Positions 4,097 to 37,326 of a DNA stretch of 40,942 nucleotides are shown in pieces. Source of the stretch: a virus (taxonomy: Duplodnaviria > Heunggongvirae > Uroviricota > Caudoviricetes); IMG/VR virus record IMGVR_UViG_2531839450_000010, positions 1 through 40,942 of that record; one strand, 5' to 3'. Position 1 is the first letter of the stretch. Every line of letters begins with the position of its first letter. A program made the position numbers and the translations under genes. The notes beneath the pieces were generated by a model that was not told the origin of the DNA, did not search any database, and saw only the letters and a program-made list of their open reading frames with translations.

Positions 4097-5209
4097 TTAG
4101 AATTGGTAGGTCATACCAACAGCAACGATGTTGTCGGTTGCAACCTCAGATCTTTTGGTAAATTCACTTTCATCAATCAGGTTGATCTTGTAGTCAACGA
4201 AAGCGGACATATTTTTGTTGAAGTAATAAGTCGCACCCAAGTCGATGTATTCAACCAGATCCTGGCTGCCGAACGCACCAATATTTTCACCGCGAGAGTG
4301 CAGATAAGCGATGGACGGACGCAGGCCGAAATCAAACTGGTATTGAGCAACAGCTTCAAAGTTTTTCGCCTTGTTCGCGATAAAGTCATCACCGAAGACA
4401 GTCATATTCTGAGTTTCAGAATAAGTTGCAGCCAGGTAAATGTTATTTGCGTCATATTTCAGGCCAGTAGCCCATACTTCAGCAGTTTTACCAGAAGCAT
4501 TCAGAGGATCCTTTTTAGCATAGGATACCTGCCCATCAGTACGATCAGATTTTGCATAGGTTGCACCAACGCCAAATCCTTCATAATCGTAAGTAGCAGA
4601 CAGACCAAAGCCATCACCATTAGATTCAACTACGTCACGGCCTTTCCAGTTGTTCACTTTTGCAGCACTATCATTTTTACCTTGATACTGCAAAGCAAAG
4701 TTCAGACCATCAACCAGGCCGAAGAAATCATTGTTACGGTAGGTGGCTACGCCAGTAGCACGCTGGGTCATAAATACATCGGTCTGAGTCCAGGTATCTC
4801 CACCAAACTCAGGCAGCACGTCAGTCCAAGCGCCAATATCATAAGCTACACCATAGTTGCGACCATAGTCGATTGAACCATAATCAGCAAAACGGAGGCC
4901 AGCAAATGCAAGACGAGTTTTATCTTTATCAGAGCCCTCAGATTCAGTACGGTTACCTTTAAATTCGTACTCCCACTGACCAAAACCGGTTAACTGGTCA
5001 TTAATCTGAGTTTCACCTTTGAATCCCAGACGAGCATAAGTCTTATCTCCGTCATCACTAGCTGAAGAAGAGAAGTAATGTTCTGCGTTAACTTTGCCGT
5101 ACAGATCCAGTTTATTACCGTCTTTGTTGTAGATTTCAGCTGCTTGCGCAGACATTGCCATCAGGACAGATGCTGCAACCGCAGAGAGTGCCACTGTGTA
5201 TTTTTTCAT
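4097..5209 (-). CDS. Outer-membrane porin, OmpC/OmpF family, closest to phage Lc / NmpC type
   Basis: 370 aa with signal peptide [24 protein letters not shown]-terminal [16 protein letters not shown] and C-terminal aromatic motif ending ...GMTYQF, closely resembling the NmpC/Lc porin sequence as I recall it. Confidence 0.9.
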
Positions 5210-5948
5210 TTTTTTGCCCTTTAGATTGAACTTTTCAGTAGAAAAGAAGTCACTGCGGACAAATGTTTATCTTTTTTGGATTCGTGTTTCAAGTTTTGCA
5301 AATAAAAATCAAGGTATTTTTGTGATCAAAATCACAAATAATAGCCTTGAAAACCCAATGGACTATTAGAAAAAACTCAATTCACAGAATAAAAATTGAC
5401 AAAATAGATCAAAAAACAATCAAAAATAAGCACAAAAGACAAACAATTAAATTATCACAAAAATAATAACCGTCAAAAATAGATAGCCTGTTAATTAACA
5501 GGGCTTTAATGGATGTAGACTTGAAATCTACTTAAAAATTAGAATCAAATTAATTACTGCCGATTGGGTATTAAATTGAATCTATATTGTGAGAGTTAAA
5601 GACGATGTGTTTTAGTTATAAATGTTATTCCCTAAAATGGAGCGGTCTCATCGAATCCTGATTAATAACGAGCTAAGCTAATTCATTTTAGTATGTGTAT
5701 ATCTTTACCCTCTGAATATGCAATAAAGAAGAGATATTAAACAATATGTAGCTTCAGGATTGACTCTGGAAGAATTAAAAGATCGACTAAAGTGTTCAAT
5801 ATGTGGTGAGCGAAACGCAAAAATTAATTTTTTTGATCTAACATATTAGGTAACGGCTTGCTTCCATAACCTAAAGCAAGCCACTACGCGTTTACTTTAA
5901 GTACACAATTAACATATCAGAACAGATTATTTTTGCACAATCAGGGAG
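5210..5948. promoter_or_regulatory. Long AT-rich non-coding region upstream of the porin gene (probable promoter/regulatory region)
   Basis: About 740 bp with no ORF of 60 aa or more. Contains a perfect 16-bp palindrome CCTGTTAATTAACAGG (5487..5502) and a GTAGA/TCTAC inverted repeat (5515..5531). Confidence 0.5.
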
Positions 5949-6260
5949 TTAATATACGATCTGGTCTACATGATCACCAAAATCATCATCGTCGTCGTCA
6001 TCATCGCCACCATCTACTGCTGGCCAATCAACAAACCAGCCAGCGTAAAGATGCAGCGTTCGGAGAACATCACTTGCGGGAGCATCAAGGGTGTTAACGA
6101 ATCCCATATAGCTATTGGGATTTGCCCCAGCTATGGCTTCAGCGATCATGTCCTCGGTAATGTCACCGGAGATAATGCTTAAACGCCCGGAAACTTCTTC
6201 ATTATCATCAAATTCGATAATGGCATCTCCGCCTAATGGCGCTGCGATTTTAATCTGCAT
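5949..6260 (-). CDS. Small highly acidic protein with a poly-Asp tract, last gene of the dar-like operon
   Basis: 103 aa; ATG overlaps the end of the upstream 995-aa gene (translational coupling). Sequence ends ...VDGGDDDDDDDDFGDHVDQIVY. Confidence 0.6.
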   Translation of the reverse strand: MQIKIAAPLGGDAIIEFDDNEEVSGRLSIISGDITEDMIAEAIAGANPNSYMGFVNTLDAPASDVLRTLHLYAGWFVDWPAVDGGDDDDDDDDFGDHVDQIVY

Positions 6261-13236: not shown

Positions 13237-13357
13237 AAGCTCCTCCCGGATCTAACAAAAATCAAGCAGGAACCTATTCAGATTGTTATTTCTGTGCATA
13301 ACGCTTTGTTCTTTAAAATTCGCAGACTCATAAGAACAACGCATTAGAGTAAAAATC

Positions 13358-13918
13358 ATGCTGATCGGCTATGTACGCGTATCAACAAATGAACAAAACA
13401 CTGCTTTGCAACGAAATGCCCTTGAAAGCGCAGGATGTGAGCTAATTTTTGAGGATAAGGCGAGCGGCAAACAGACTGAACGCCCTGGGCTAAAAAAGGT
13501 TTTGCGTATGCTTTCCAGAGGTGACACCCTGGTCGTATGGAAGTTAGATCGTCTTGGGCGCAGCATGCGTCACTTGGTTGTGCTGGTGGAAGAGCTGCGT
13601 GACAGAGGAATTAATTTCCGGAGTCTCGCTGACTCTATCGACACCAGTACACCAATGGGGCGCTTTTTCTTTCACGTAATGGGAGCGCTGGCAGAAATGG
13701 AACGTGAGCTTATCGTTGAACGTACACGCGCTGGACTTGATGCAGCTCGCGCAGAAGGTCGTATAGGTGGGCGTCGGCCTAAATACCAAGAAGAAACATG
13801 GCAGCAAATGCGGCGATTGCTGGAGAATGGCATCCCCCGTAAGCAGGTTGCAATCATCTATGATGTGGCTGTTTCCACGCTTTATAAGAAGTTTCCGGCG
13901 TCGTCATTTCAATCCTAA
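13358..13918 (+). CDS. cin: Serine DNA invertase, Hin/Gin/Cin/Pin family
   Basis: 186 aa; N-terminal MLIGYVRVSTNEQNT with the catalytic Ser, and conserved GDTLVVWKLDRLGRS and GRIGGRRPK blocks closely matching Gin. The stop codon lies inside the left crossover site. Confidence 0.92.
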   Translation: MLIGYVRVSTNEQNTALQRNALESAGCELIFEDKASGKQTERPGLKKVLRMLSRGDTLVVWKLDRLGRSMRHLVVLVEELRDRGINFRSLADSIDTSTPMGRFFFHVMGALAEMERELIVERTRAGLDAARAEGRIGGRRPKYQEETWQQMRRLLENGIPRKQVAIIYDVAVSTLYKKFPASSFQS

Positions 13919-13935
13919 ACCTTGGTTTAAGAGAA
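13910..13935. other. Invertase crossover site, left (cixL-like 26-bp site)
   Basis: CAATCCTAAACC-TT-GGTTTAAGAGAA: AAACC/GGTTT half-sites around a 2-bp core, directly abutting cin. Confidence 0.8.
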
Positions 13936-14065
13936 CTCGGTACCAGCGGTGAAAAGATCCCCCTGTTGAGCACGGCTAACACATGGAGTGCGCGCCAGAT
14001 TTTCAACGGAGGGATCACCGGGGCACTGACAGGGAACGCCGACACCGCGACGAAATTGAAAACAG
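13924..14065. repeat. Left inverted repeat of the invertible segment (~140 bp, ~95% identical to the inverse of 17645..17786)
   Basis: Direct comparison of this stretch with the reverse complement of the right-hand copy shows only a handful of mismatches before the sequences diverge. Confidence 0.8.
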
Positions 14066-15123
14066 CACGCACTATTGGCGGTGTGGCATTTGATGGTACT
14101 GCGAATATTAATTTACCTGGTGTTAACGTTGCGGGTAATCAGAATACATCCGGTAACGCGGCTACAGCGACCAAGTTGCAGACAGCATGTACTATCAACG
14201 GCGTCTCGTTTGATGGTTCTAAAAATATTGAGCTAACGGCGGAAGATTTAAATCTACAGGAATTTATTAATAAAGCAAATAATGCCGTTCAGCGTTCAGG
14301 CGATATCTTGTCCGGCGGACTTACTTTTGAAAACGACTCAATCCTTGCCTGGATTCGAAATACTGACTGGGCGAAGATTGGATTTAAAAATGATGCCGAT
14401 GGTGACACTGATTCATACATGTGGTTTGAAACAGGGGATAACGGCAATGAATATTTCAAATGGAGAAGCCGCCAGAGTACCACAACAAAAGACCTGATGA
14501 CGTTGAAATGGGATGCACTAAATATTCTTGTTAATGCCGTCATTAATGGCTGTTTTGGAGTTGGTACGACGAATGCACTAGGTGGTAGCTCTATTGTTCT
14601 TGGTGATAATGATACCGGATTTAAACAGAATGGAGACGGTATTCTTGATGTTTACGCTAATAGTCAGCGAGTATTCCGCTTTCAGAATGGAGTTGCTATT
14701 GCTTTTAAAAACATTCAGGCAGGTGATAGTAAAAAGTTCTCGCTATCCAGCTCCAACACCTCCACAAAGAATGCAACGTTTAATTTATGGGGTGCTTCCA
14801 CCCGTCCAGTGGTTGCAGAATTAGGCGATGAGGCCGGATGGCATTTCTATAGCCAGCGAAATACAGATAACTCGGTAATATTTGCTGTTAACGGTCAGAT
14901 GCAACCCAGCAACTGGGGAAATTTTGATTCCCGCTATGTGAAAGATGTTCGCCTGGGTACGCGAGTTGTTCAATTGATGGCGCGAGGTGGTCGTTATGAA
15001 AAAGCCGGACACACGATTACCGGATTAAGAATCATTGGTGAAGTAGATGGCGATGATGAAGCCATCTTCAGGCCGATACAAAAGTACATCAATGGCACAT
15101 GGTATAACGTTGCGCAGGTGTAA
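13966..15123 (+). CDS. Alternative tail-fibre variable C-terminal segment (Sv'), promoterless in this orientation
   Basis: Frame is open back to the crossover site (13924) and encodes GLRELGTSGEKIPLLSTANTWSARQ, identical to the junction in the expressed fibre gene. C-terminus ...INGTWYNVAQV parallels the other copy. Confidence 0.8.
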   Translation: MSTANTWSARQIFNGGITGALTGNADTATKLKTARTIGGVAFDGTANINLPGVNVAGNQNTSGNAATATKLQTACTINGVSFDGSKNIELTAEDLNLQEFINKANNAVQRSGDILSGGLTFENDSILAWIRNTDWAKIGFKNDADGDTDSYMWFETGDNGNEYFKWRSRQSTTTKDLMTLKWDALNILVNAVINGCFGVGTTNALGGSSIVLGDNDTGFKQNGDGILDVYANSQRVFRFQNGVAIAFKNIQAGDSKKFSLSSSNTSTKNATFNLWGASTRPVVAELGDEAGWHFYSQRNTDNSVIFAVNGQMQPSNWGNFDSRYVKDVRLGTRVVQLMARGGRYEKAGHTITGLRIIGEVDGDDEAIFRPIQKYINGTWYNVAQV

Positions 15124-15126
15124 GTT

Positions 15127-15654
15127 ATGCAGCATTTAAAGAACATTAAGTCAGGTAATCCAAAAACAAAAGAGCAATATCAGCTAACAAAGAATTTTGA
15201 TGTTATCTGGTTATGGTCCGAAGACGATAAAAACTGGTATGAGGAAGTGAAAAACTTTCAGCCAGACACAATAAAGATTGTTTACGATGCAAATAATATT
15301 ATTGTCGCCATCACTAAAGATGCCTCCACGCTTAACCCTGAAGGTTTTAGCGTCGTTGAGGTTCCTGATATTACAGCCAACCGCCGCGCTGATGATTCAG
15401 GAAAGTGGATGTTTAAGGATGGAGCTGTAGTTAAACGGATTTATACGGCAGACGAACAGCAACAACAGGCCGAATCACAAAAGGCCGCATTGCTTTCCGA
15501 AGCTGAATCAGTCATCCAGCCGCTGGAACGCGCTGTCAGGCTGAATATGGCAACAGACGAGGAACGCACACGACTGGAAGCATGGGAACGCTACAGTGTT
15601 CTGGTCAGCCGTGTGGATACGGCAAATCCTGAATGGCCACAAAAGCCTGAATAA
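15127..15654 (+). CDS. Tail fibre assembly protein (U'-type, alternative copy)
   Basis: 175 aa, N-terminus [22 protein letters not shown], paralogous to the 177-aa protein on the opposite strand; typical Tfa size and position. Confidence 0.85.
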
Positions 15655-15659
15655 AAATT

Positions 15660-15679
15660 AAGGCCCGCTATCGGGCCTT
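15660..15679. terminator. Bidirectional terminator-like hairpin between the convergent tail-fibre-assembly genes
   Basis: AAGGCCCG-CTAT-CGGGCCTT stem-loop in the 28-bp gap between the two stop codons. Confidence 0.6.
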
Positions 15680-15682
15680 GTC

Positions 15683-16216
15683 TCATTCAGGTTGTTCGGG
15701 AAATGTTACTGGCAGGCTGGAGGTGTCTGTAGATTCGACTTTCTGCGCATAGAGCATCCACTCAGTTAATTTTTGTTTATTCTCGTCGGAAATGATGCCC
15801 AGCCGTAGCTGTGAGTCCCATAGCTGGGTTTTATCCCTGACAAGTTGCAACAGGCTTTGTTTTTCATTCTCTGCCTGCTGCCTTTGTTCCTCCTCGGTAT
15901 AAGTTCGCTTTATCACTACGCCATCTTTGAACATCCATTTACCCGAAATATCAGCCCGGCGATTTGCTGTAATATCAGGAACCTCAACGACGCTTGCGCC
16001 TTCTGGATTAATTGCTGAAACATCCTTTTCAATACAAATAATAACGTCGTTGTGGTCATAGACCATTTTCAACGTATCAGGCTGAAAGTTCTTTTGTTCC
16101 TCATACCAGTTTTTCCCATCCTCTGTATAAAGCCATTTGATGTTAAATTGTTTCGTTAGCTGGTATTGCTCTTTTGTTTCAGGATTACCAGCAGAAATGT
16201 TTTTTAAGTGCATCAT
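15683..16216 (-). CDS. U: Tail fibre assembly protein (U-type, expressed orientation)
   Basis: 177 aa, [22 protein letters not shown]...; directly follows the tail-fibre gene. Confidence 0.85.
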   Translation of the reverse strand: MMHLKNISAGNPETKEQYQLTKQFNIKWLYTEDGKNWYEEQKNFQPDTLKMVYDHNDVIICIEKDVSAINPEGASVVEVPDITANRRADISGKWMFKDGVVIKRTYTEEEQRQQAENEKQSLLQLVRDKTQLWDSQLRLGIISDENKQKLTEWMLYAQKVESTDTSSLPVTFPEQPE

Positions 16217-16218
16217 CG

Positions 16219-16590
16219 TTAAATACTCCCCGCGTTATACCACGTCCCATTAATGCAATACTGAATTGGCCTTGCCTGAGTTGTATCAATTAATTCATCA
16301 CGGTTTCCGTTAACTGAACCTGTAACGACATAACCTGACCTGTCAGACCAGCCGGGACCATTCCATGTCTGAACAGATGACAGACCGCCCAGGCGAATAC
16401 CTGTAATAAACCTTGAGTTACATTCTGCCTGCGTATATGCACCAACATCCCCCGCAGAGGGTTTGCGGGTTGTGGTGTAAAACTCTGACCAGTTAGCTTC
16501 AAAGCCATAACCATCACGCGCTGAACGATAAAAGATACCGCCGTTCTTATAATTCACGCGGAACTGTACAGCAGGGCAACTCCCCCGCAT
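16219..16590 (-). CDS. Tail-fibre C-terminal fragment in a shifted frame (continuation of the fibre gene after a frameshift)
   Basis: C-terminus ...ARPIQYCINGTWYNAGSI parallels the alternative copy's ...FRPIQKYINGTWYNVAQV. Overlaps the end of the 16547..19147 frame at a C5/G5 run. Confidence 0.7.
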   Translation of the reverse strand: MRGSCPAVQFRVNYKNGGIFYRSARDGYGFEANWSEFYTTTRKPSAGDVGAYTQAECNSRFITGIRLGGLSSVQTWNGPGWSDRSGYVVTGSVNGNRDELIDTTQARPIQYCINGTWYNAGSI

Positions 16591-19147
16591 TCATATTGAA
16601 GTGGAGGATTAATGTCGATGCGCCACTGATATCTGCATCATAAACGCCGCTATTCCAGTTCCAGCCAACAGCTTTATCATTTGCAACCTTGCTTCCTGTT
16701 TGCCCTAAAGCAAATGCAGGCTGCTGGTTTTTCGTGTTGTAGTCTCTTCGCCAGCCAGGAGCATAAGCATCACCATGATTAATATAAGTGAATTGAGCGT
16801 TAGTAATTCCGCCACCGCTGGACGTGCTCGGCGTAGTAACGCGTATGGTCATTGCGCCGCGAGTGCCAATAACTTCCACCACAGCACCTGCAAGACAAAT
16901 ATTTCCGCAACCTGTATCTGTAATGACCTTATTATTTGCATAAGCCCATGAGCCTTTGCACATCCAGTAAGGATGGTTAAATGCTCCCTGACTCTCCAGC
17001 CACGAAATAAATTGCGCGGTTGTCCAGACCTGACTATCGCCACCAATATTCAGCCATGCGCTATATGCGCGGCAGGCACCAATATTTTTGGTGAAGGTAT
17101 CTTTTCCCGGAATATCTGCGCCGTTCTGGTTTTTCTGTAATGCTCCTGCGGCTAATTCTACAGTTTGCTCAAGATTTAAATCTGCCGCCGTTAGCTCAAT
17201 ATTTTTAGAACCGTCAAACGAGACACCGTTGATAGTACACGCCGTCTGCAATTTGGTCGCTGTAGCCGCATTACCAGAGGTGTCCTGATTCCCTTTGGTA
17301 TTAACGCCGGGAACGGAATCTTTTGACGTATAGATCTGTGCCCATTCGGACCATGCCGCAGCAGTGCTATCTCTTTTGGATCGAATGAAAGCTGGTGCAT
17401 GAGCGCCATTTGTGCCACTCCAGCCAATGAGCAACTCGCCTTCACCAGTGGATGCAGCTCCCTTCAGGTGAAGTACATTCCCGTAAGTCGTCGGATAACC
17501 ATTGTTGTATGCCTCATACATCTGCAATCCAGTAGCAGCACCTTGCGTTGTACCGGTAAGCGCAGTAACGCGTCCTCTAGACGTAATTGTTGGTATCGAA
17601 ATGTTCGTAGAACCATCGAATCTGACGCCATTAATGTTTATGGCTGTTTTTAATTTCGTCGCGGTGTCGGCGTTCCCTGTCAGCGCCCCGGTGATCCCGC
17701 CGTTAAAAGTCTGGCGTGCACTCCATGTGTTAGCCGTGCTCAACAGGGGGATCTTTTCACCACTGGTACCGAGTTCTCTTAAACCAAGGTATTGGATAAC
17801 AGCAAGAACGCTTGTTTTGGCCAGAATATCGCGACCGACTGACGTTAAGTCAGTCTGAGAAACAGTGTCTGTACCGGTAAAGTACGGCAATTTATTTGCG
17901 CCTGTCGCAAGACCAGCAAGCGCGGTTAAAGTTGCATCAAGTGGCTGTTTCCCTGCCAGCGCATTTGTCATTGTTGTCGCAAAGTTCGGGTCATTGCCCA
18001 GTGCTGCTGCAAGCTCATTCAGGGTATCAAGAGCTTCAGGTGATGAGCCGACCAATGCAGAGATAGCAGCCCGTACGTAAGCAGTCGTAGCGATCTGCGT
18101 ATTGTTTGTGCCCTGTGCAGCCGTAGGCGCAGTAGGGACACCCGTTAATGCAGGGCTTGCCAAAGGCGCTTTGAGAGCCAAGGCATTGTTGATAGTTGTG
18201 CTGTAATTCGGGTCGTTATTGATCGCAGCCGCTATTTCTTTCAGCGTATCCAGTGTGCCAGGCGCACCGTTGATAAGTGCAGTTATAGCTGCCTTAACAA
18301 AGGCTGTATTTGCGATCTGCGTGCTGTTTGTACCTTGCGCTGCCGTCGGCGCTGTTGGCGTTCCTGTCAGACTCGGGCTTTCTATTGGCGCTTTGGTATC
18401 AGCCAGATCTTTTATAGACTTAACAGCTTTAGGGGTAGCCGCCATTGTTTCGCTGTCGCTGTTAGTTGCGCTACTGAGCTGAACTAATCCCTTTTGCGTT
18501 GTGCTTGCATCCTGCGCCGTATACTTGCTTTTCGCCAGATCGTAGGCTTTTTTAACTGCCAGCGAACTTGCCGCAACATCACTTCTGGTACTGGTTACAG
18601 AGTCTGAAATATCAATGCCGATAGTGCGGTTGATACGCTCTGATGTATCAATCATCTCTTGGGTAATGGCAGATACACCAGCAGGAATATTCACCGTACA
18701 AACAAGCAGCTCTCCATCTCCTAACTGATATGAATCGGTATAGGTTCTGGCAATAAATTCAGCCGCATGAATATGTGACGCTGTATTAACCTGATAGGTA
18801 TCTTCTCCAAGGAGGTATCTTCCCTTCAGCACAATTGCATATTTCTTGCCTGCACTAAGTGCAAGAGAAATATCCTTACGGTGCTGAATAGTTACCTGGT
18901 AGAATTCACCAATATCCACCGACGCCGCGCCTGCGGTTTTATCACCATCCACTGAGGTGATTAACAGGTTCATCCCACCGCCAGGCTTAGGTAAGAAACC
19001 GGCATAAAATCCCGGGTCAACAATCCCCCTGAATTTTCGGTTTAGCGCGGCTGACAGATATGGTTCGTGGTATTGCACATCAGCCACCAGAGCCAACGAC
19101 TCGGGTGATGGGTAAGTAACTGATGTAACAACTGTAACGTCATTCAT
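16547..19147 (-). CDS. S: Tail fibre protein (S-type; constant N-terminal part plus variable part), interrupted near the C-terminus by a frameshift
   Basis: Contains tandem fibre repeats (APxxSPxLTGxPTAPTAAQGTN.TQIA.TA.V). Likely start is the ATG at 19147 with an AAGGA RBS; the track start at 19234 is upstream of it. The right crossover site lies inside the gene. Confidence 0.85.
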   Translation of the reverse strand: MNDVTVVTSVTYPSPESLALVADVQYHEPYLSAALNRKFRGIVDPGFYAGFLPKPGGGMNLLITSVDGDKTAGAASVDIGEFYQVTIQHRKDISLALSAGKKYAIVLKGRYLLGEDTYQVNTASHIHAAEFIARTYTDSYQLGDGELLVCTVNIPAGVSAITQEMIDTSERINRTIGIDISDSVTSTRSDVAASSLAVKKAYDLAKSKYTAQDASTTQKGLVQLSSATNSDSETMAATPKAVKSIKDLADTKAPIESPSLTGTPTAPTAAQGTNSTQIANTAFVKAAITALINGAPGTLDTLKEIAAAINNDPNYSTTINNALALKAPLASPALTGVPTAPTAAQGTNNTQIATTAYVRAAISALVGSSPEALDTLNELAAALGNDPNFATTMTNALAGKQPLDATLTALAGLATGANKLPYFTGTDTVSQTDLTSVGRDILAKTSVLAVIQYLGLRELGTSGEKIPLLSTANTWSARQTFNGGITGALTGNADTATKLKTAININGVRFDGSTNISIPTITSRGRVTALTGTTQGAATGLQMYEAYNNGYPTTYGNVLHLKGAASTGEGELLIGWSGTNGAHAPAFIRSKRDSTAAAWSEWAQIYTSKDSVPGVNTKGNQDTSGNAATATKLQTACTINGVSFDGSKNIELTAADLNLEQTVELAAGALQKNQNGADIPGKDTFTKNIGACRAYSAWLNIGGDSQVWTTAQFISWLESQGAFNHPYWMCKGSWAYANNKVITDTGCGNICLAGAVVEVIGTRGAMTIRVTTPSTSSGGGITNAQFTYINHGDAYAPGWRRDYNTKNQQPAFALGQTGSKVANDKAVGWNWNSGVYDADISGASTLILHFNMNAGELPCCTVPREL
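17645..17786. repeat. Right inverted repeat of the invertible segment
   Basis: Reverse complement matches 13924..14065 at about 95%. Confidence 0.8.
17774..17799. other. Invertase crossover site, right (cixR-like 26-bp site)
   Basis: TTCTCTTAAACC-AA-GGTATTGGATAA; the outer half-site reverse complement TTATCCAATACC resembles the classic hix/gix half-site. Confidence 0.8.
18040..18484 (-). repeat. Tandem direct repeat (2 x ~222 bp) inside the tail-fibre gene, encoding two 74-aa fibre repeats
   Basis: The string GCGATCTGCGT recurs at 18090 and 18312, with extended similarity between the two units. Confidence 0.7.
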
Positions 19148-19158: not shown

Positions 19159-19593
19159 TTATGCTGTTGTCGTGTTTATGGCCATAACTGCGGTATATGT
19201 TTTGCCCACATACAGCGAGTCTTCCTGGACACAAATAATGGCGATTGGCTTGTTCTCGTTATCCAGAACAACCAGAGTGTTGAATGGGTAGTTTTTCCCT
19301 TCCTGCAACTGGCTTTGATCAAGGTCCATTCGGACAGTAATTATCCCGCCTGAGTAGGTTGGGACGAGGTTGATGGTGCAAAATTGACTGGTCAGTTCTG
19401 CCAGATCGAAAACCTTTGGCAGTTCTCCAATCTCATAAGTGCCATCTCCTTTCTTAGTAACCAGTGAACTGGTACCGAAAACGGCCTTGCTGATTAAAAA
19501 TCGAGAGCCTTTGTTAATGGACGATTCAGCGCGCCGCTGATAGTAATAGTCCAACAACTGACTCTTATAGAGGTTTGTTGAGACGTCAGACAT
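19159..19593 (-). CDS. Tail-fibre-associated structural protein (P1 R-like)
   Basis: 144 aa immediately upstream of the tail-fibre gene; assigned by position. Confidence 0.4.
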   Translation of the reverse strand: MSDVSTNLYKSQLLDYYYQRRAESSINKGSRFLISKAVFGTSSLVTKKGDGTYEIGELPKVFDLAELTSQFCTINLVPTYSGGIITVRMDLDQSQLQEGKNYPFNTLVVLDNENKPIAIICVQEDSLYVGKTYTAVMAINTTTA

Positions 19594-19644
19594 GATTTTC
19601 CCTAATCAATGTTGTGAAGCCTCATTGTAAGAGAAGTAACTTGT

Positions 19645-22297: not shown

Positions 22298-25200
22298 TCA
22301 ACTCTCGCGTAGTCATTCATCAACGGATCATCAATTGACAGTGGTACCGTGCGCATAACGCCCGGCTGAGGCGTGCTGACCTTTACGACAGTTCCCTGGC
22401 CTTTCGCCGAGTCTTTGGTGTGCTCTTCAATCCTGGCAAGCAATGAGGTCATCTGCGCAAACAGCCGCTTCGTTTCACCATCAAGTGAAACGGTATTATC
22501 AGCCAACTGCATTGTCGGCTTGGCACCGGAGCCGCCAAGGTCACTAATAACCTGTCCGTCTATCTGCATACGACCGGTTGGTTGCTGCAAATCGTTGGCG
22601 GCAGTCGTCACCTTGGACGTGGAGGCTGGTTCAGGCGCATTATTTTTCCGCATCCCCGGCGAGTTGCGGAGTTTATCGAATAGTCCATCAATCTCCATTT
22701 GTGCGCCGAGTTGGTCAAAGTAACTTGAGTTGTTGGCCACCGGACGCGCCTCTTCAACTGGCATCGGAGTATCAACATACACATTGCCAGCTGCTGTTGC
22801 GGTCCCCTTCCCTCGTGCACGTTCTTCGAGCGTTCCCTGAACGACTTCCCGACGCATACCCCGGCCATTCATGAATTTGTTGACCAGATCGTTAACGCCA
22901 ACAGCATTGCCGATTTTGTCTACCAGACCGCCTTTCTCAAACGGGCTATCACCAGGGGTAAATGCCAGGCCAGTAGACTGATCGATAACAGCGTTATCAG
23001 GCAGTGGTCCCCTCACTCCATATTGCGCCCCACCCTGTGCTCCTGCTCCAGGTGTATAGATTTCACCACCTAAATAGCGAGCACGATGAGTATTGACCTT
23101 GATCGCGTACTCACGGTTTTCTTTGGATAAGTCACCTGTGCCTTTTTTCCACTTATTGATAGTGCCAAACCCAGCGTTATATGCAGTGATGGCCTCGTTT
23201 AAGTCTCCATTGGCTTGCTTCAGATACTTGCTCATGAGAAGAGCCGCAGCTTCTGCCGATTTCACAGGATCAAACGATTCACCTTCAGCTAAGCCAGTCT
23301 CTTCACGAGCAATCCCCGTGAACTGAAACATTCCCAGAGCACCGGTTTGGGATTTTGCATACGGATTACCACCAGATTCAGTTGCAGCAATCGCGTAAAG
23401 AGTGCCTTCTGGAAGACCGTATTTATTCTCTAGTTCGGCAAAATACGGAGCCAACTTATCGAGATTTGCCTTACCTTCAGCGCCAAGACTTCCGACTTTT
23501 ACATCTAAGTTGCCATTGTTGTAAGTATCCGCAGCTTTCTGAATGTCATTCCTGGTGCCAGTAGTATTAAGCGACGATGATGATGAGCTATTTTGACCAA
23601 TAGCATTATCAATTTTCTGCAACGCGCTATTGCCCGTTTCTACGGCATTTGCATTGATAATCTGATTGGCAGTTTCTTTAACTGTTTTATTGCTATCTTT
23701 CGCCGTATCTAGGGATGCATTTACAACACGAGTGACAATATTAGCCTTTTTAGGGGTATATTCAGTCTTAGGAGCATTGTCCTCCTGACTTTCTTTAGCT
23801 GGTGTTTTTAATTCAGGTGTAACCTCTTTCGCATCCGCTTTGTTGACTAGCTTTGATGCAACCCAGGCCACAGGGGTGCTCTGAACAGCGGCATCTGCAA
23901 CCTCACCTGAAAGCTCTTTTGCGGCACTCCATAGATTACTGCCAGCTTCTTTAATGTATTTCCCTGGGTTCTTAATGAAATCAATTGCACTATCAATTGC
24001 ATCACTGAAAACCTGTTTCAGGTTATCGACAGTAAAGAAGTTTTTGATGGCGTCTAATTTTTCGTTCAGGTTCTTTGTTGTGTCACTGAACCATGCTGAA
24101 ATAGCATCACCAATCTTTGCAGTATAATCACTAAATGTCGTGGATATAGTATCACCAAGGTTAGAAATATATGTTTCTAAATTGGTAATCCCACTATCAA
24201 TGGCCTGGGCAATACTTTCCGTCGAAAATGATTGCAACATATTGCCGATATCCTCAAATCCAAGTGATTTGAGAACGCCGCCAATGGCACTGCTAATACC
24301 AGATACCAGTCCTCCCATATCGAGAACGTTAGCCAGTGTATAAGCCGCTTTTTGCTGAAAAGATGGATCTTCCCCATCCTTAAGCCCAAAGGTCCGACGT
24401 TGTGCTTCTGTATCATTCCAACCGGTTACCGCATCATAGATACCTCCAGCCACCGTGCCGACTAGCGGAATTGCGCGTAAAGCCCCCTTTGCAAGAGCCT
24501 TAACACCTAGTTTCCCCAATCCCTTAGTTGCAAGTTTTCCGGCACCGCGAGTAGCCAATTCGCCAGCTTCTTTGGCAGCAGCTTTTTTCCCACCAAAGCC
24601 CAATAAGCTTGCAACTTTTTTTATACCTAAAGCGCCTAGTGCCATCGAGCCAACTTTCTTTAGTACCCCACGGCCAAAAATAAGGGAAGCAATACCACCG
24701 GCCCCCTTCCCTAACAGGCTAAATAGTTTGGACAGCAAGCCGCCCTTCTTTTTCCCGGTGTTTTTGGCTATCTGATCAAGGGCGCTGAGAATCTTGTCAT
24801 TGCCCTCTTTAATTTCGCTGGTCTGCTCCTGAAGTTCCTGAACCGTCCGTTTTTGGGTGTTAACCTGAACGACATCGGCACTATTTTGCGATTTACGCCT
24901 AAAAAAACCTTTTCTACGGCTGTTATCGTCATTGCCACGAATCACATCGGCAATAGACTTTCTGGCACCATTAAGCGATCCGCCAACTTCTTTTGATATC
25001 CCGCCAAGCTCCTTCCCTGCTGCCCACAATGGACCTGCAACGGCATAACCTAACGCATCGACAGCACGAGTCTCTGAAGGGTTACCTATGCCTTCAGCTA
25101 CTTTTGACAGTTTTTTTAATAAACCTGATTCAGCATTTAGACGCTCATCATCCTCTTTGCGCCTGGCCTTTTCAGCACGTTCAGCACGGGCATCTTCCGC

Positions 25201-25692
25201 TGCGGCCTTACTCCCTGACTTTCCAATAAAACGACCACGCGCATCGCGTTGGTTTTGGCTTTTTTGCGCACCGCCTTTTTGACCGAACATTTCGCGAGCG
25301 TGTTCGGCTGCTTCGGTCCGTTGCGCCTTTACATCTTCTGTTATAGCCTTCTTGCGTCGTTTTTTACCCTTTCGCGTAGTTGATTTGGCCTGCGGTTCCT
25401 GTAGAGCAACATCCTCCTGAACTACACGAGAAACGTCCCCTAAATTAAGCCGTTTCATTGCCTCAACAATAGGGTCCACTGATGGCGCATTGGCCACAAA
25501 GTCTGGCCGGGAATTTTCGATTGTGCGATTTAATGCCGACACACTGCGAGAGACAGGATCAACTGTAGCAACTCGCCCCCCTTTCAAATCTTCAACGGCT
25601 TCCCGAATACCTGCAAGCTCTTCCAGCTCTTTTGCGCTGGCGGTTTCAACCGTCCTTATCACATCGTCAATGTTGGCGTTTTTTCTTTCCAT
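22294..25692 (-). CDS. sit: Injection transglycosylase / tape-measure-like protein with a soluble lytic transglycosylase domain (P1 Sit-like)
   Basis: 1132 aa; SLT-type motifs visible (ATESGGNPYAKSQTGALGMFQF ... AYNAGFGT); long Gly/Ala/Lys-rich low-complexity regions. P1 Sit is about 1140 aa by recall. Confidence 0.75.
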   Translation of the reverse strand: MERKNANIDDVIRTVETASAKELEELAGIREAVEDLKGGRVATVDPVSRSVSALNRTIENSRPDFVANAPSVDPIVEAMKRLNLGDVSRVVQEDVALQEPQAKSTTRKGKKRRKKAITEDVKAQRTEAAEHAREMFGQKGGAQKSQNQRDARGRFIGKSGSKAAAEDARAERAEKARRKEDDERLNAESGLLKKLSKVAEGIGNPSETRAVDALGYAVAGPLWAAGKELGGISKEVGGSLNGARKSIADVIRGNDDNSRRKGFFRRKSQNSADVVQVNTQKRTVQELQEQTSEIKEGNDKILSALDQIAKNTGKKKGGLLSKLFSLLGKGAGGIASLIFGRGVLKKVGSMALGALGIKKVASLLGFGGKKAAAKEAGELATRGAGKLATKGLGKLGVKALAKGALRAIPLVGTVAGGIYDAVTGWNDTEAQRRTFGLKDGEDPSFQQKAAYTLANVLDMGGLVSGISSAIGGVLKSLGFEDIGNMLQSFSTESIAQAIDSGITNLETYISNLGDTISTTFSDYTAKIGDAISAWFSDTTKNLNEKLDAIKNFFTVDNLKQVFSDAIDSAIDFIKNPGKYIKEAGSNLWSAAKELSGEVADAAVQSTPVAWVASKLVNKADAKEVTPELKTPAKESQEDNAPKTEYTPKKANIVTRVVNASLDTAKDSNKTVKETANQIINANAVETGNSALQKIDNAIGQNSSSSSSLNTTGTRNDIQKAADTYNNGNLDVKVGSLGAEGKANLDKLAPYFAELENKYGLPEGTLYAIAATESGGNPYAKSQTGALGMFQFTGIAREETGLAEGESFDPVKSAEAAALLMSKYLKQANGDLNEAITAYNAGFGTINKWKKGTGDLSKENREYAIKVNTHRARYLGGEIYTPGAGAQGGAQYGVRGPLPDNAVIDQSTGLAFTPGDSPFEKGGLVDKIGNAVGVNDLVNKFMNGRGMRREVVQGTLEERARGKGTATAAGNVYVDTPMPVEEARPVANNSSYFDQLGAQMEIDGLFDKLRNSPGMRKNNAPEPASTSKVTTAANDLQQPTGRMQIDGQVISDLGGSGAKPTMQLADNTVSLDGETKRLFAQMTSLLARIEEHTKDSAKGQGTVVKVSTPQPGVMRTVPLSIDDPLMNDYARVD

Positions 25693-25773
25693 GATCTTAT
25701 CGCCTACCGCTTCGGTTTAAGTTTTTCTTCCAGTTTCTCCAACAGGAAAAACGCATAGGATTCAGTGAGCCTT

Positions 25774-26655
25774 TCAGCGTCCTGAATCGGTATACCCCCA
25801 TACAAAACCAGGTTGGACACTAAGGTCTGATAGCTTTTCAATCCCCACCTGTGGAATGAAGTCGGTAGCCCGAAAGGGCACCCACAGACGGGTATACGCA
25901 CCCTCTGTGGACTCCTTTGTATCCTGGTTTGGGCATTTGTGCGGCGGGAGACGAAGACGCATTTCGCCTTTATCGATGTAGCACGGTAAACCATGTTCGA
26001 GCTTTTCATGAGCCAGCCGGATGTGTGCCGCCAGCTTCATAAATTCAGTATCAATGGCCATCCGTTTGATCGTTTCATAACGACGCTCAGCCTGCTCTTC
26101 ACGAGTACCGCTAACATCGTTATAAAGTTCACACTGATAAGCGAATTCCCAAAAACGCAAATCAACGATCGCTTCTTTGAATTCCGCGTCGTCTTCAGGT
26201 GGCAATGCTGCACGGCGCATCTCCAGCATTTCCATTGCCCAACCATCAAGCGGCACGATACGCCATTGATAAGGTACTCCCTCTACAGACACCTCAATAT
26301 CGTCAATGAAAGGTTCCACTTCCAGGACCTGGATATCTTCAGCCAGAGCATTCATATCGCAATCGTAATAATGCTCTTTACCGCAATGTTTACAGGTGTA
26401 GGTGAATGTCTCGACCGGTGTTTCACGGGAGCCGGTAAATATCCACCATAACGCGGTAATCCGGTCCTGCGCCGTCCATGTCAGGGGATCATGTTTCGCG
26501 GGTTCAGCCAGCAAGGCTTTTAAATACGCCGTTGTCTGTTGTTCTTGTTCCTCCGGTGTTATCGAGTTGAAACGCATCGCATCAGCAATATTTGGCTGAC
26601 GGAACTGGATCAATTCAGTTGGCCGCGATGGTAGCGGGAAAAGAGGTAAAAGCAT
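25774..26655 (-). CDS. Hypothetical virion-associated protein with a Cys cluster
   Basis: 293 aa containing CKHCGKEHYYDCD; directly upstream of the Sit-like gene. Confidence 0.3.
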   Translation of the reverse strand: MLLPLFPLPSRPTELIQFRQPNIADAMRFNSITPEEQEQQTTAYLKALLAEPAKHDPLTWTAQDRITALWWIFTGSRETPVETFTYTCKHCGKEHYYDCDMNALAEDIQVLEVEPFIDDIEVSVEGVPYQWRIVPLDGWAMEMLEMRRAALPPEDDAEFKEAIVDLRFWEFAYQCELYNDVSGTREEQAERRYETIKRMAIDTEFMKLAAHIRLAHEKLEHGLPCYIDKGEMRLRLPPHKCPNQDTKESTEGAYTRLWVPFRATDFIPQVGIEKLSDLSVQPGFVWGYTDSGR

Positions 26656-26669
26656 CCTTGCTCCTTAAT

Positions 26670-27281
26670 TCAAAGAGAAAAACTAAAGCCCAGAAGGGAA
26701 GCTAAAGAACTTGAGGATTGGTTAAACGTGCTGTGCAATGCGAAGGTCATTGGGAATGACTTAAATTCCGTAACCTGATCTCGCGCATAGGTGACATCGC
26801 CGGTAGTGACCGGGAATACCGTCATCTCATTTTCCAGTTTGGTTAAGCCGGAAGACAGCAACCGATAAATACGCACATTGAGCAAATATTTAGACGGTAT
26901 ATTCCCGGTACCGTCTGGATTAATCACCCGACTTTTTGCCGTCTTAAACCAGTCCAAAACGAGGCCATCAACGGTATCCCTGACCATCATTGTTATCTGC
27001 CCTGGCGAACGCTCCGTTGGTTGAAGGATATTCCCTCCGCCGATTTTAATCGTTTCATATTCGATGCTGTAATCGTGGTAGGTAATGTCTTTAGCAAAGA
27101 AGTCTGCCCCCTCCAGACCATCAACTTCGACAGAGAACTGCCATCCTTGCGCGAACAGCATTTTGTTCATGATGATTGACGTCAGCTTACCAACTTCCCG
27201 CTCACCAACGCCGGAGCCAAATAATGTCGTCGTTAATGCCGAAGATACATAAGACTTTACTGAAGCAACATTAAGCCCCAT
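26670..27281 (-). CDS. Hypothetical structural protein
   Basis: 203-aa ORF in the same operon; no motif recognised. Confidence 0.3.
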   Translation of the reverse strand: MGLNVASVKSYVSSALTTTLFGSGVGEREVGKLTSIIMNKMLFAQGWQFSVEVDGLEGADFFAKDITYHDYSIEYETIKIGGGNILQPTERSPGQITMMVRDTVDGLVLDWFKTAKSRVINPDGTGNIPSKYLLNVRIYRLLSSGLTKLENEMTVFPVTTGDVTYARDQVTEFKSFPMTFALHSTFNQSSSSLASLLGFSFSL

Positions 27282-27291
27282 ATCAGCCCCC

Positions 27292-27882
<591 letters not shown>

Positions 27883-27916
27883 TTAACCGATTCTACGAGT
27901 AGTCATTTGTGACAGG

Positions 27917-28393
27917 TCATTTTGCGCGCTTCAGGCAGCCATCTTCAGGTGCCGCGTTGAAAAGCTCTGCGGCCTTACGTAGCGTAAATGTTGCGATTTT
28001 TTTTCCGTCTACGTATGCATCGAATGTTTTAACTTCCATATCAGGGGTATCTGACCAAAAACCATACCAGTAACTATCACCCACAGAGGAACCGATAGAA
28101 CTGATAGGATATTCATCATCACCAACTTTCAGCGTTATTTGTTCTTTTTTAGCATCAAATGACTCACCGCCAGGTTCTGTTTTCATGAGAGTGAGTAGTC
28201 GTGTTCCTACTTGATTGGGATCCGTATTATTAAATCCAACATCGCACTCAAATGTAAGCGTATAATTATCTTTGCTGGAAACAGCATAAGAACGAACACC
28301 ATGAGTCTCGCCGGTTGACCATTTGCTTACATTTGCCATTGATGAAAATGGAGTAAGCAAAGCAAGAATTAGAAAAAATCGTTTGATGCGCAT
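27917..28393 (-). CDS. Secreted/periplasmic protein
   Basis: 158 aa with N-terminal signal peptide MRIKRFFLILALLTPFSSMA. Confidence 0.5.
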   Translation of the reverse strand: MRIKRFFLILALLTPFSSMANVSKWSTGETHGVRSYAVSSKDNYTLTFECDVGFNNTDPNQVGTRLLTLMKTEPGGESFDAKKEQITLKVGDDEYPISSIGSSVGDSYWYGFWSDTPDMEVKTFDAYVDGKKIATFTLRKAAELFNAAPEDGCLKRAK

Positions 28394-28454
28394 TAATTTA
28401 TCTCCTTTGGATATTAACGATTATCAATATTTTAATTGGTTATCCATAATATAT

Positions 28455-29102
28455 TTACCATTCATAGGGTAAATTAAGCGCTTTTAAACCTTGCTGGAAG
28501 GTATTAAGTGAGCCGTTCTTTTGTTGTTCCATTTGTTCGCGTGCCGCTTTCTCATACTGCTCCATCCGTTGGTTATACTCTTGCAATTCCTCTGGTGAGA
28601 GGTTTCCCATTGGGGAGTTTGTACCCGGCCCCCTGGCCCGCTCTTCAAGCGTACCCTGCACGTTTTGATGGCGCATTCCCGGGGCGTTTCTGATTGAATC
28701 AATGCCATTTCTTCCAACGTCTTCTTTATTAACGGCATTGCTCGCCACCAGCACACCCCAGCTAGGGATAGCAAAATCAGGAGCGGTTTCGCATGCCTTT
28801 ACCATATAATCGAAAGAGCTTCGATTGATCTCGTTTGCGTCGGGATTTAACAGGCGAGAATATTGATATTTAGCATTTTCGTTGGTTGCGACTTTATACA
28901 GTTCTTGCTGCACCATCGCTTCAGAAAGTTTAAGGCGTTTCATATCTGACAGTAACTTCTTGCGCATGGATTCGTCTTGACTGACAGCAAAGCCGTAAAC
29001 GTGCCCAAGGTATTTCGTATAATCGGTACAAATCTCCTTTACGCTTGATGCTGCATTAACAGTCCCAGCCATAAATAATAACGGTAGTAATAGTTTTCTC
29101 AT
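28455..29102 (-). CDS. Secreted protein carrying a Sit-like motif; candidate superinfection-exclusion (Sim-like) protein
   Basis: Likely start is the ATG at 29102 (GGTGAGG RBS); signal peptide MRKLLLPLLFMAGTVNA. Contains APGMRHQNVQGTLEERARGPGT, which matches GRGMRREVVQGTLEERARGKGT in the Sit-like protein. Lies next to the immI module. Confidence 0.5.
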   Translation of the reverse strand: MRKLLLPLLFMAGTVNAASSVKEICTDYTKYLGHVYGFAVSQDESMRKKLLSDMKRLKLSEAMVQQELYKVATNENAKYQYSRLLNPDANEINRSSFDYMVKACETAPDFAIPSWGVLVASNAVNKEDVGRNGIDSIRNAPGMRHQNVQGTLEERARGPGTNSPMGNLSPEELQEYNQRMEQYEKAAREQMEQQKNGSLNTFQQGLKALNLPYEW

Positions 29103-29198
29103 TATAACCTCACCTGCCTTATAACTCATTTAGGGTACATATTTTCGCCTTTAAAAAAAAGAGGTTATTAGATCCATTTGTGTATTTATTAAACAAAC

Positions 29199-29215
29199 AA
29201 TGCTCTAATAAATTT
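29199..29215 (+). promoter_or_regulatory. C1 operator-like 17-mer (Op51-like) at the immI promoter
   Basis: AATGCTCTAATAAATTT, one mismatch to the consensus; a possible -35/-10 pair (TTGTAT-N17-TATCTT) overlaps it. Confidence 0.7.
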
Positions 29216-31822: not shown

Positions 31823-32630
31823 ATGAGCGATTTTACTTTTTCTGGCTATGAATTGGCCTGCTTTGTAACACACTCCGGTCTATCCCGTAGCGCCGGGCAT
31901 ATCCTGTCGCAATGTGCAAATCTCGCGGCAACAACCAGTGAATACTTCATTCACAAGCCTCACCGCCTGATCGCGGCAGAAACTGGTTATAGCCAATCAA
32001 CCGTCGTTCGTGCATTCCGTGAAGCTGTAAACAAAGGAATTCTGTCTGTAGAGATTGTTATCGGCGATCACCGTGAACGTCGCGCTAACCTGTACCGGTT
32101 TACACCATCCTTTTTGGCCTTCGCACAACAAGCCAAAAATGCGCTGATTGAAAGCAAATTAAAGATCTCTTCAGCGGCAACCAAGGTTAAAGCTGTTCTC
32201 GCTAAGACATTGGCTTTATTTAATTTTTTATCCACACCCCCATGTCAAAATGATACCCCCTCCCCCTGTCAGGATGACGTGGCAATAAAGAATAAGAAGT
32301 CACAAGTTAAAAAACAAAAGATCAGTTTCCGGCGGTGCCGGAACGACCAGACTCAAAAAATTGACTTCATGGATCGCTGAGGCAAAAGCAAAGGCTGACA
32401 ATCTGCGGTTATCCAAAAAACGCGCTCAAAAACATGAGTTCAAGCAGAAAGTAGAGGCGGCAGCGCGGAAATATGCTTACCTGAAGAACAAGCGTTCTCC
32501 TGATATTTGCGGGATATCAAACTTCGATAATCTGCCGCATTGCATGACGGTAAACGAAGCTCTTAATGCGGTTTTCGCCAAAAATAAAGATAACGAAAAA
32601 TGGGGTATACCGGCAGGATTCAGAGGGTGA
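31823..32630 (+). pseudogene. repL: Lytic replicon initiator RepL, reading frame interrupted by a +1/-1 shift in an A-rich tract
   Basis: Frame A (from MSDFTFSGYELACF...) stops at 32380, while an overlapping frame open from about 32289 continues ...SVSGGAGTTRLKKLTSWIAEAK... to 32630; together about 280 aa. A6 and A4 runs at 32309..32319 and an A6 run at 32355..32360 are the candidate slip points. Confidence 0.6.
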
Positions 32631-32893
32631 TAGATTGCTCTAATCTGGAGTCACCTGGCATTTTCAGTTTGAGGTCGGAGATGCAATCTGATTTTTACAG
32701 TTAGCGATCACTTTTTGCAGGGCATCGTTGAGACATATCCATATATAAAAACCCAAAGCCAGATCAAAACTTGTACTGATAAAAACACAGCTAACCATCA
32801 CAACTTGTAACGTTTATAATGAGTAAAAGAGTGATACATTGCTACTTTTACATATTTTTTGACTTAATTCATGGATAGTAATGGAGATGCATA

Positions 32894-33949
32894 ATGACTT
32901 ATGCTGGCACACAAACAGCAGATAACGCCGGGGATACCATGAAATCGTATGCTATTTGGAATAATAAAGGTGGCGTAGGAAAGACCTACTTATCTTTCGC
33001 TATGGCCTGTGAATACGCAAGGCAAAATCCAGAAAAGCGTATTATTTTTGCAGATATGTGCCCGCAGGCTAACTTATCTGAAATATTGCTCGGCGGTAAC
33101 GGTACTGGTGCTGCTAACCTCGCGAGCTTAATTCAACAACGAAAAACTGTCGGTGGGTACTTTGACAGAAGAACTCGCAGCCCCCACATGCTTACCGGTT
33201 CAGAAACAAGTTTCTTAATTCATGTCTCTGAAATTAACGGACATGTCCCTGACAATGTATTTTTGATTGCAGGCGACCCAAGCCTGGAAGTTCAGGCGCA
33301 AGTAATCAATCAGTTAAGCAGCGTAAACTTACCAGTTGACTCATGGAAAAGCATCCACCTGTGGCTACGAGATTTGCTTGTTGCATGTGCACAACAACAA
33401 GGTATCGAAGAAACCATTTGCTTTATTGATTGCAACCCCAGTTTCTCTGCCTATACCGAACTATCACTGATAGCAGCAAATGCAATTATAATACCTTGCT
33501 CAAGTGATGGTTCTTCGGCTCGAGCAGTGGATAACCTAAGCCAGTTGGTTTATGGCGTTGGAGTACAAAACGATTATCGTTCTGTTAACTTTTACGATCG
33601 GTGTCAACAGTTTGGTCTAGCGGTTCCTGTCATTCATTCTCTAGTTTTTAATCGTTCGACAGAGTATGACAAACGAGCAAGTAAAGCGTTTTCGGCAATG
33701 TTCGACGAAATCAGGGATAGAGCTGAAAATCTGCGGACGAATAAACCAACAGCGTTCCAAGGCGGAAATTTAAAAACGTTTACTGTGCCAGATAACCATT
33801 CCGTAGCTATAGTATCTTCCCATCTAGGAAGACCTCTATTTGATATAAAACCAGGCAGATATCAGATCCATGATACTGAGCCACAAATCAATAATGAACC
33901 ATTAGAAAGATATGGTGCAGCAATCGAACGTCTTGTTCAGAGTTTATAG
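32894..33949 (+). CDS. ParA/MinD-family (deviant Walker A) ATPase with no adjacent ParB partner
   Basis: Deviant Walker A motif WNNKGGVGKTY near the N-terminus and a Walker B-like FIDCNP. An alternative start at 32939 (MKSYAIW...) is more typical for the family; the ATG at 32894 has a GGAG RBS. Confidence 0.75.
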   Translation: MTYAGTQTADNAGDTMKSYAIWNNKGGVGKTYLSFAMACEYARQNPEKRIIFADMCPQANLSEILLGGNGTGAANLASLIQQRKTVGGYFDRRTRSPHMLTGSETSFLIHVSEINGHVPDNVFLIAGDPSLEVQAQVINQLSSVNLPVDSWKSIHLWLRDLLVACAQQQGIEETICFIDCNPSFSAYTELSLIAANAIIIPCSSDGSSARAVDNLSQLVYGVGVQNDYRSVNFYDRCQQFGLAVPVIHSLVFNRSTEYDKRASKAFSAMFDEIRDRAENLRTNKPTAFQGGNLKTFTVPDNHSVAIVSSHLGRPLFDIKPGRYQIHDTEPQINNEPLERYGAAIERLVQSL

Positions 33950-33980
33950 TGGCTTATCTCACTCATAATGGCTAAAAAAA

Positions 33981-34010
33981 GGCTGCAACAGAGGTTGCAG
34001 CCTTTTTTAT
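33981..34010. terminator. Bidirectional rho-independent terminator
   Basis: A7 tract, GGCTGCAAC-AGAG-GTTGCAGCC stem-loop, then TTTTTTAT; sits between convergent genes. Confidence 0.75.
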
Positions 34011-34019
34011 AAAATTACA

Positions 34020-34307: not shown

Positions 34308-34595
34308 ATATACTTCCTTTATTCTATAGATTATAGGAATTGCGTTGTCCAAAAAACAAACAACACAATAACAATAAAGAAACATACACACAACAAAAAC
34401 TAACGCTATTTATTGATAGATTTGCCTGATGAATGCTAGCTCTCTTTGCTGCCTAGCACTCAAACAAATAACAGAAGAAAGCCCCAGATAACATTACGCG
34501 TCCTGCAAGACGCTTAACATTAATCTGAGGCCATATCCATGCTTAGCATATCTAGATTAACCCTCTCCCCTTTTAAGGAGCAAGGAATTTTACTG

Positions 34596-35873: not shown

Positions 35874-35884
35874 ATAAAATCCTT

Positions 35885-36466: not shown

Positions 36467-36501
36467 TCAAGTTAAAGGCCGGAGTTCTCCGGCCTCCTCC
36501 T

Positions 36502-37317: not shown

Positions 37318-37326
37318 TGTATTCCC

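Follow-up and report, generated by a model that had tools for sequence, protein, structure and literature searches.

The window, by which we mean the whole 40,942-nt stretch of DNA analyzed here, contains the serine DNA invertase gene cin next to a segment that holds two tail-fibre cassettes, each of which is followed by its own Caudo_TAP chaperone gene (Table 1). The segment is bounded by two inverted sites with a 2-bp core. The surrounding genes, darA-lydB-lydA-lydC on one side and R-16-bplA on the other, form a context of the P1 family. We obtained the coordinates of the late promoter LPs by mapping the P7 annotation through the offset between the window and P7; its -22 box and -10 TACAAT are intact, and there is one substitution in the spacer. 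The hairpin between the converging chaperone genes had a folding energy of -25.7 kcal/mol (z-score -4.8), and a terminator scan placed its T-run on the minus strand.

Table 1. Features of the invertible segment and its surroundings (positions in the window).
Feature	Position	Strand	Description
Op(lydC)	13337-13353	-	C1 repressor operator by the P7 annotation; separates lydC from cin; the P7-annotated 17-mer matches exactly at 13337
cin	13358-13918	+	Serine DNA invertase, 186 aa
Recombinational enhancer	13376-13443	+	Lies in the 5' portion of cin; all 68 nt of the P7-annotated enhancer matched exactly
cixL	13910-13935	+	26 bp, CAATCCTAAACC-TT-GGTTTAAGAGAA; central TT at 13922-13923; overlaps the cin stop; same as annotated cixL of P1 and P7
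Sv'	13924-15123	+	Silent alternative C-terminal fibre cassette; P2 gpH-type tip
U'	15127-15654	+	Tail-fibre assembly chaperone paired with Sv'; Pfam Caudo_TAP 8.2e-38
Hairpin	15660-15679	-	Between the converging chaperone genes; terminator-like, for the operon currently expressed
U	15683-16216	-	Tail-fibre assembly chaperone of the expressed cassette; Pfam Caudo_TAP 2e-36; 94% identical to P1 U'
Sv	16219-17785	-	Variable cassette currently joined to Sc; +1 frameshift in the C-run 16582-16586
cixR	17774-17799	+	26 bp, TTCTCTTAAACC-AA-GGTATTGGATAA; central AA at 17786-17787; lies within the fibre gene; same as annotated cixR of P1 and P7
Sc	17788-19147	-	Constant N-terminal part of the tail-fibre gene S; collinear with P7 Sc; Pfam Phage_fiber_2 repeats 5e-30
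R	19159-19593	-	First gene of the R-S-U tail-fibre operon; length and position as in P7 and P1 R
LPs	19623-19642	-	Late promoter, drives R-S-U; aligned with annotated LPs of P7 and P1

An earlier note on this DNA had described a Cin-type invertase beside an invertible 3.86-kb tail-fibre segment, and both descriptions were borne out. Cin was identical to P7 Cin at 185 of 186 residues and to P1 Cin at 182 of 186, as befits an ortholog in the Cin/cix system. Pfam matches to Resolvase (2.9e-50) and HTH_7 (1.7e-18) gave it the N-terminal catalytic domain and C-terminal helix-turn-helix of the resolvase/invertase family, and it matched the solved Gin structure 3UJ3 (1.5e-88). The catalytic serine is retained in an RVST motif and aligns with S9 of Gin (3UJ3 is the S9A form). 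One substitution, T91A, is private to this copy, all eight comparators having T; since Gin has T there and gamma-delta resolvase has D, the position is not invariant across the family. The enhancer, located in the 5' part of cin, is predicted to be Fis-dependent from its identity to the P7 annotation, matches the P1-annotated enhancer at 69 of 72 positions, and would be expected to function as it does in P1. A consensus scan found no sigma-70 promoter upstream of cin, whereas weak predicted promoters are annotated there in the P1 record.

The stop codon of cin (TAA, 13916-13918) falls inside the left half of the first 26-bp site, as the earlier note had seen, and the inverted partner that it had placed in the fibre gene is cixR. 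Both sites are base-for-base the same as those annotated in P1 and P7, and their crossover dinucleotides are 3,864 nt apart. The 17-mer common to them, TTCTCTTAAACCAAGGT, occurred exactly twice in the 40.9-kb window with up to three mismatches allowed, in inverted orientation, so that at this threshold no further or quasi cix sites were found in the window. The two matches stand above background, as shuffled sequences averaged 0.07 matches and two were never reached in 100 shuffles. A looser core pattern gave six matches against a shuffle mean of 2.7, which corresponds to background-level extras. The Min system of p15B, in which a serine invertase on a P1-related backbone shuffles tail-fibre C-termini (PMC5786510), has multiple crossover sites and several cassettes; a multiple-inversion shufflon of this type was rejected, because the window holds exactly two cix-type sites, at up to three mismatches, and two cassettes.

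Counted inward from the crossover, the first 50 nt of the two arms match at 98%, the first 140 nt at 95% and the first 200 nt at 84%, in agreement with the ~140-bp inverted repeats at ~95% identity reported before, and deeper than the repeats the identity drops to background. A second, deeper block (14134-14262 against 17165-17293) is 88% identical, and it is offset because the expressed cassette has ~282 extra nt. The repeats had also been called shorter than the ~0.6 kb of P1, which is correct: those of P1 are 100% identical over ~550 nt to ~0.6 kb. P7 has the same short and imperfect profile as the window, and short repeats are thus a P7 trait that does not set this element apart.

The silent fibre frame had been said to be open up to the crossover. 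It is open through it, the nearest upstream stop ending at 13887, and the peptide that it encodes, ...LGLRELGTSGEKIPLLS, also stands in the expressed fibre. Inversion of the segment in silico gave an open fibre of 853 aa, the last 293 aa of which are 96.6% identical to P2 gpH, and U' shares 98.3% of its residues with P1 U and 93.7% with P2 gpG. Within Sv', a 370-nt block (14539-14908) could not be aligned to P7 and is ~97% identical to P2 H. We rejected the idea that this P2-like block is unique to the window, as the plasmid pMB5646_3 (NZ_CP103660) has the same architecture with 95.2% identity over the full 1.3 kb. The fibre ORF in the sequenced orientation stops after 866 aa; with one C removed from the C-run, which is C5 in the window and C4 in every relative checked, it extends to 975 aa and is 99.1% identical to P7 gpS. 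Sc is accordingly open across the crossover both ways, giving 975 aa (repaired) or 853 aa. The frameshift in the expressed fibre was absent from the earlier account.

After repair of the frameshift, the expressed cassette is 99% identical at the protein level to P7 Sv and 92% to P1 Sv'; it belongs to the P7 Sv type and corresponds to P1 Sv', which by the P1 nomenclature puts the window in the C(-) state. The suggestion of a different host-range cassette was therefore only partly apt, since both cassettes are of known types. When they were aligned to P1, Mu and P7, as had been proposed, and to P2, the expressed one proved to be P7 Sv (P1 Sv' type) and the silent one to carry the P2 gpH-type tip, and the segment interior was 92-93% identical to the G-segment of Mu and D108 over about half its length.

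We then compared the locus with known systems. Over positions 13300-17850, identity to cin and the C-segment of P7 (AF503408) is 98.7%, and collinearity with P7, at ~98%, extends over all 41 kb of the window, from proA through parS. P7 (features annotated at 34789-39361) shares the gene order lydC-cin-cixL-Sv'-U'-U-Sv-cixR-Sc-R, has cix sites and an enhancer identical to those of the window, and is deposited with its segment in the same orientation. The two differ in that the P7 segment measures 4,005 nt between crossover cores and that of the window is ~144 nt shorter (3,862 nt), that P7 Sv' has a 514-nt block in place of the P2 gpH-like one, and that P7 U has a W94 stop whereas U of the window is intact; the +1 frameshift in Sv and Cin T91A belong to the window. 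P1 (AF234172) agrees with the window in the sequence of both cix sites, in its Sc/Sv/U architecture and in the neighbouring genes, but its segment is 4,256 nt long with perfect inverted repeats, and the cassettes of the window are 88-89% identical to those of P1 at the DNA level. P2, which supplies the match to the silent fibre C-terminus and U', has a fixed fibre, H followed by G, without a recombinase or an alternative cassette. The gin/G-segment of Mu (S/S', U/U') shares the mechanism and cassette logic, although the phage backbone differs and Mu has its invertase gene at the opposite end of the segment.

Overall, we consider with a probability of about 0.97 that this locus represents the Cin/cix C-segment switch for host range, carried by a P7-like phage-plasmid of the P1 family. 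The switch is an ordinary one, already known and annotated in P7, and both the Cin/cix switch of P1 and the 4-kb invertible C-segment of P7 are in the literature (PMC6906374, PMC5786510, bioRxiv 10.1101/2022.07.24.501295). This confirms the window as P7-like phage-plasmid DNA with a complete host-range switch; otherwise the result is mainly of annotation value.

Although the window is one assembled sequence in which a single orientation is visible, both orientations occur among its relatives. The plasmid NZ_CP182338, a 98-99% relative, carries the segment flipped: the window inverted in silico aligns to it unbroken through cixL (99.3% over 4.8 kb), whereas in its native orientation the alignment breaks at the repeats. 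Furthermore, the sister plasmids pRHB41-C20_3 and pRHB41-C15_3 (98,816 bp each, from one farm sample) show no differences in 11,260 nt after in-silico inversion of 3,856 bp at the identical cix sites.

By analogy with P1, the serine recombinase Cin would bind the two inverted 26-bp cix sites, as established for that phage, and, once host Fis occupies the enhancer within cin, would assemble an invertasome. Cleavage by Cin at the 2-bp core in the middle of each site, followed by rejoining after a 180-degree subunit rotation, would leave the 3.86-kb segment inverted. Because cixR lies inside the tail-fibre gene S, Sc, which is transcribed from LPs, is fused to one of the two C-terminal cassettes, with the respective assembly chaperone behind: in the sequenced orientation to the P7 Sv cassette (P1 Sv' type) and U, whereas after inversion it would be joined to the cassette with the P2 gpH-type tip and U', giving the 853-aa fibre. 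The receptor specificity of the latter fibre is presumably different: it is predicted to act like that of P2 and to depend on the LPS core, and the Sv fibre like P1(S'), which is reported to depend on O-antigen (bioRxiv 10.1101/2022.07.24.501295). That this copy is active, that it depends on Fis and which receptors the fibres recognize are inferences, whereas the sequence parts, their match to the P1 and P7 annotation, the fusion frames and the inversion in close relatives are direct observations.

The copy might instead be a relic in a decaying plasmid-prophage that yields no infective particles, so that the switch would be without phenotypic consequence. Such decay is suggested by three frameshifting indels in conserved genes, at 1447 (proB), 16582 (S) and ~32315 (repL), none of which is shared by any of the 350 to 518 matching E. 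coli records, by the private T91A in Cin, and by the description of P1-like plasmids with degraded cin or C-segments (PMC6906374). However, the indels in S and repL sit in homopolymer runs, a typical signature of sequencing or assembly errors, all other genes compared are intact and ~98% identical to P7, and no damage is seen in the cix sites, the enhancer or the silent cassette. We regard a relic as unlikely. The frameshift in S was rejected as a lineage trait, since none of 350 records has it, and the same applies to proB and repL. Because two further private frameshifts lie elsewhere in the window, the one in S probably reflects a sequencing error; should the sequence be correct, the fibre in the present orientation would lack its last 109 residues. 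The private frameshifts are a warning of poor sequence quality in the assembly, or else of decay of the element.

It is very improbable that the C-run frameshift is real and acts as a second switch, by replication slippage, layered on Cin inversion; infectivity via the expressed cassette would then need slippage, or else inversion to the P2 gpH-type cassette. We give equally little credence to inversion through RecA-dependent homologous recombination between the inverted repeats, without Cin acting at cix: the repeats (~150 to 190 nt) are long enough as RecA substrates, and the breakpoints in the sister plasmids can be narrowed no further than the initial ~70 nt of identical repeat on either side, but a dedicated, conserved invertase adjoins the segment, with sites identical to the cix sites defined by experiment in P1 and the enhancer in place, the imperfect repeats (95%) disfavour RecA exchange, and in P1, according to papers that cite the original work, inversion maps to the cix crossover sites and needs cin (Iida et al., 1982, as cited in PMC6906374 and bioRxiv 10.1101/2022.07.24.501295).

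No evidence contradicts the identification as Cin/cix, and the three caveats, namely the single visible orientation, the private T91A in Cin and the frameshift in the expressed fibre cassette, touch only the activity of this copy. In this switch, the P2 gpH-type tip on a P7 backbone may confer a host range undescribed for transducing phages of the P1 family, and the silent cassette could become relevant were the element used or tracked as such a phage. The replacement of P7 Sv' sequence by this tip exemplifies how P1, P2 and Mu, as is known, exchange tail-fibre modules.

The region proved to be the P7-type Cin/C-segment switch, a system already known and already annotated. It was 98.7% identical to phage P7 (AF503408), and the match spanned exactly the annotated cin, enhancer, cixL, Sv', U', U, Sv, cixR, and Sc, where Sc is the constant part of fibre gene S, Sv and Sv' are the expressed and silent C-terminal cassettes, and U and U' are their chaperones. 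Collinearity with P7 extended over the entire window, proA through parS, at ~98% identity, except for a few replaced blocks. The earlier note's observation of an invertase beside an invertible tail-fibre segment was confirmed, and its interpretation is supported.

Features of the switch and of other genes in the window
Feature	Position	Strand	Description
cin	13358-13918	+	186-aa ORF; Resolvase and HTH_7 domains
Enhancer	13376-13443		68 nt, unchanged from P7-annotated enhancer; 69/72 identical to P1 enhancer
First site (cixL)	13910-13935		CAATCCTAAACC-TT-GGTTTAAGAGAA; assigned by sequence identity to annotated cixL
Inverted partner site (cixR)	17774-17799		TTCTCTTAAACC-AA-GGTATTGGATAA
Sc, constant part of S	19147 down to 17788	-	Joined at cixR to facing cassette
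Porin gene, complete	4097-5209	-	Gram-negative porin; Porin_1, 3.9e-148; position of P7 nmpC
ParA-like ATPase	32894-33949		AAA_31; within block 32645-35321
DUF3892 protein	34020-34391		Within block 32645-35321

The window Cin was identical to P7 Cin at 185 of 186 residues and to that of phage P1 (AF234172) at 182 of 186, matched the solved Gin structure (1.5e-88), and kept the catalytic serine. It carries a private T91A substitution (codon 13628-13630) at a position where Thr is found in the Cin of P1, of P7, and of six plasmids; at the equivalent residue, Gin has T and gamma-delta resolvase has D. Going by the established biology of Cin, Gin, and Hin, this serine recombinase would act with a Fis-bound enhancer, cutting with a 2-bp stagger and rejoining after its subunits rotate. 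As the earlier note had described, the stop codon of cin lies inside the first crossover site and the inverted partner falls within a long minus-strand tail-fibre ORF; the two 26-bp sites showed no differences from the cixL and cixR annotated in P1 and in P7. The 17-mer common to both sites had exactly two matches in the window with up to three mismatches allowed, against a mean of 0.07 in shuffled sequences. Inward from the central dinucleotides, the arms were indeed 95% identical over 140 nt, and identity was down to background by ~200 nt. A deeper second repeat block (14134-14262 vs 17165-17293, 88% identical) is offset because the expressed cassette contains ~282 additional nucleotides. 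The repeats had also been described as shorter than those of P1, which is correct (the P1 repeat is perfect over ~550 nt) but is no novelty, since P7 shows the same short imperfect profile.

At cixR, Sc is joined to the cassette that the segment's orientation brings next to it. As sequenced, this cassette is of the P7-Sv type; with its frameshift repaired, the expressed fibre has 975 aa and shares 99.1% identity with P7 gpS and 91.9% with P1 S', and chaperone U (15683-16216), 3' of the expressed cassette, is 94% identical to P1 U'. This U is intact, whereas that of the P7 reference is split into Ua and Ub by an in-frame stop (W94, TGG to TAG; U gene at 5528-6061 of the P7 sequence compared). 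In silico inversion of the window at the TT/AA cores gave an open 853-aa fibre that matches the P2 gpH C-terminus at 96.6% identity over its final 293 residues; downstream of it lies U', with 98% identity to P1 U and 94% to P2 gpG. A strong, terminator-like hairpin separates the two converging chaperone genes, and both boxes are retained in LPs, the late promoter that precedes R. What does set the window apart from P7 is a silent-cassette block (14539-14908; 370 nt vs 514 nt in P7) that is ~97% identical to P2 H and relatives. The P1-like plasmid pMB5646_3 has the same architecture adjoining its recombinase (95.2% identity), and therefore the combination of a P7-type switch with a P2-like block is not unique. 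That P1, P2, and Mu trade fibre modules has long been known.

Both orientations were found among relatives. The in silico inverted window aligned unbroken through cixL with plasmid NZ_CP182338 (99.3% over 4.8 kb), and the alignment of the native orientation broke at the repeats. Two sister IncY plasmids of Escherichia fergusonii from one farm sample, pRHB41-C20_3 and pRHB41-C15_3 (NZ_CP056963.1 and NZ_CP056970.1; each 98,816 bp), have identical cix sites, and over the 11,260 nt compared their sole difference was a 3,856-bp inversion (record 24714-28569); after in silico inversion at the cix cores, no differences remained. Together, the pair captures the two states of the switch as they occur in nature. 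Because the pRHB41 Cin differs from the window Cin at six positions, this inversion is evidence for the system and not for the window's copy.

That copy carries private frameshifts, which suggest either assembly errors or a decaying prophage. In the expressed cassette of S (19147..16219, minus strand), an additional C in the run at 16582-16586 (C5 vs C4 in P7) shortens the ORF from 975 to 866 aa, and none of the 350 matching E. coli records carries the same change. The head-processing gene proB has an additional G at 1447 and repL lacks 2 nt of an A-run (32315-32316), leaving a 197-aa ORF against the 281-aa P7 RepL; both changes are private, being absent from P7 and from about 500 E. coli records. 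Since the S and repL indels lie in homopolymer runs, sequencing error is the likelier cause, and real decay of this copy, with which all three frameshifts would also agree, is the less probable one.

Among the replaced blocks, 32645-35321 has no P7 alignment and stands in place of rapA, rapB, and upf52.1; besides its two tabulated genes, it contains an ORF (34596-35228) with no Pfam match. Blocks 27916-29200 and 23754-24694 either lacked a P7 alignment or aligned at only 87%. The former has two ORFs in place of upf50.0 and upf50.5, one with a weak, below-cut-off PTPlike_phytase match, and the latter lies within the sit transglycosylase gene. The porin gene is phage-carried cargo.
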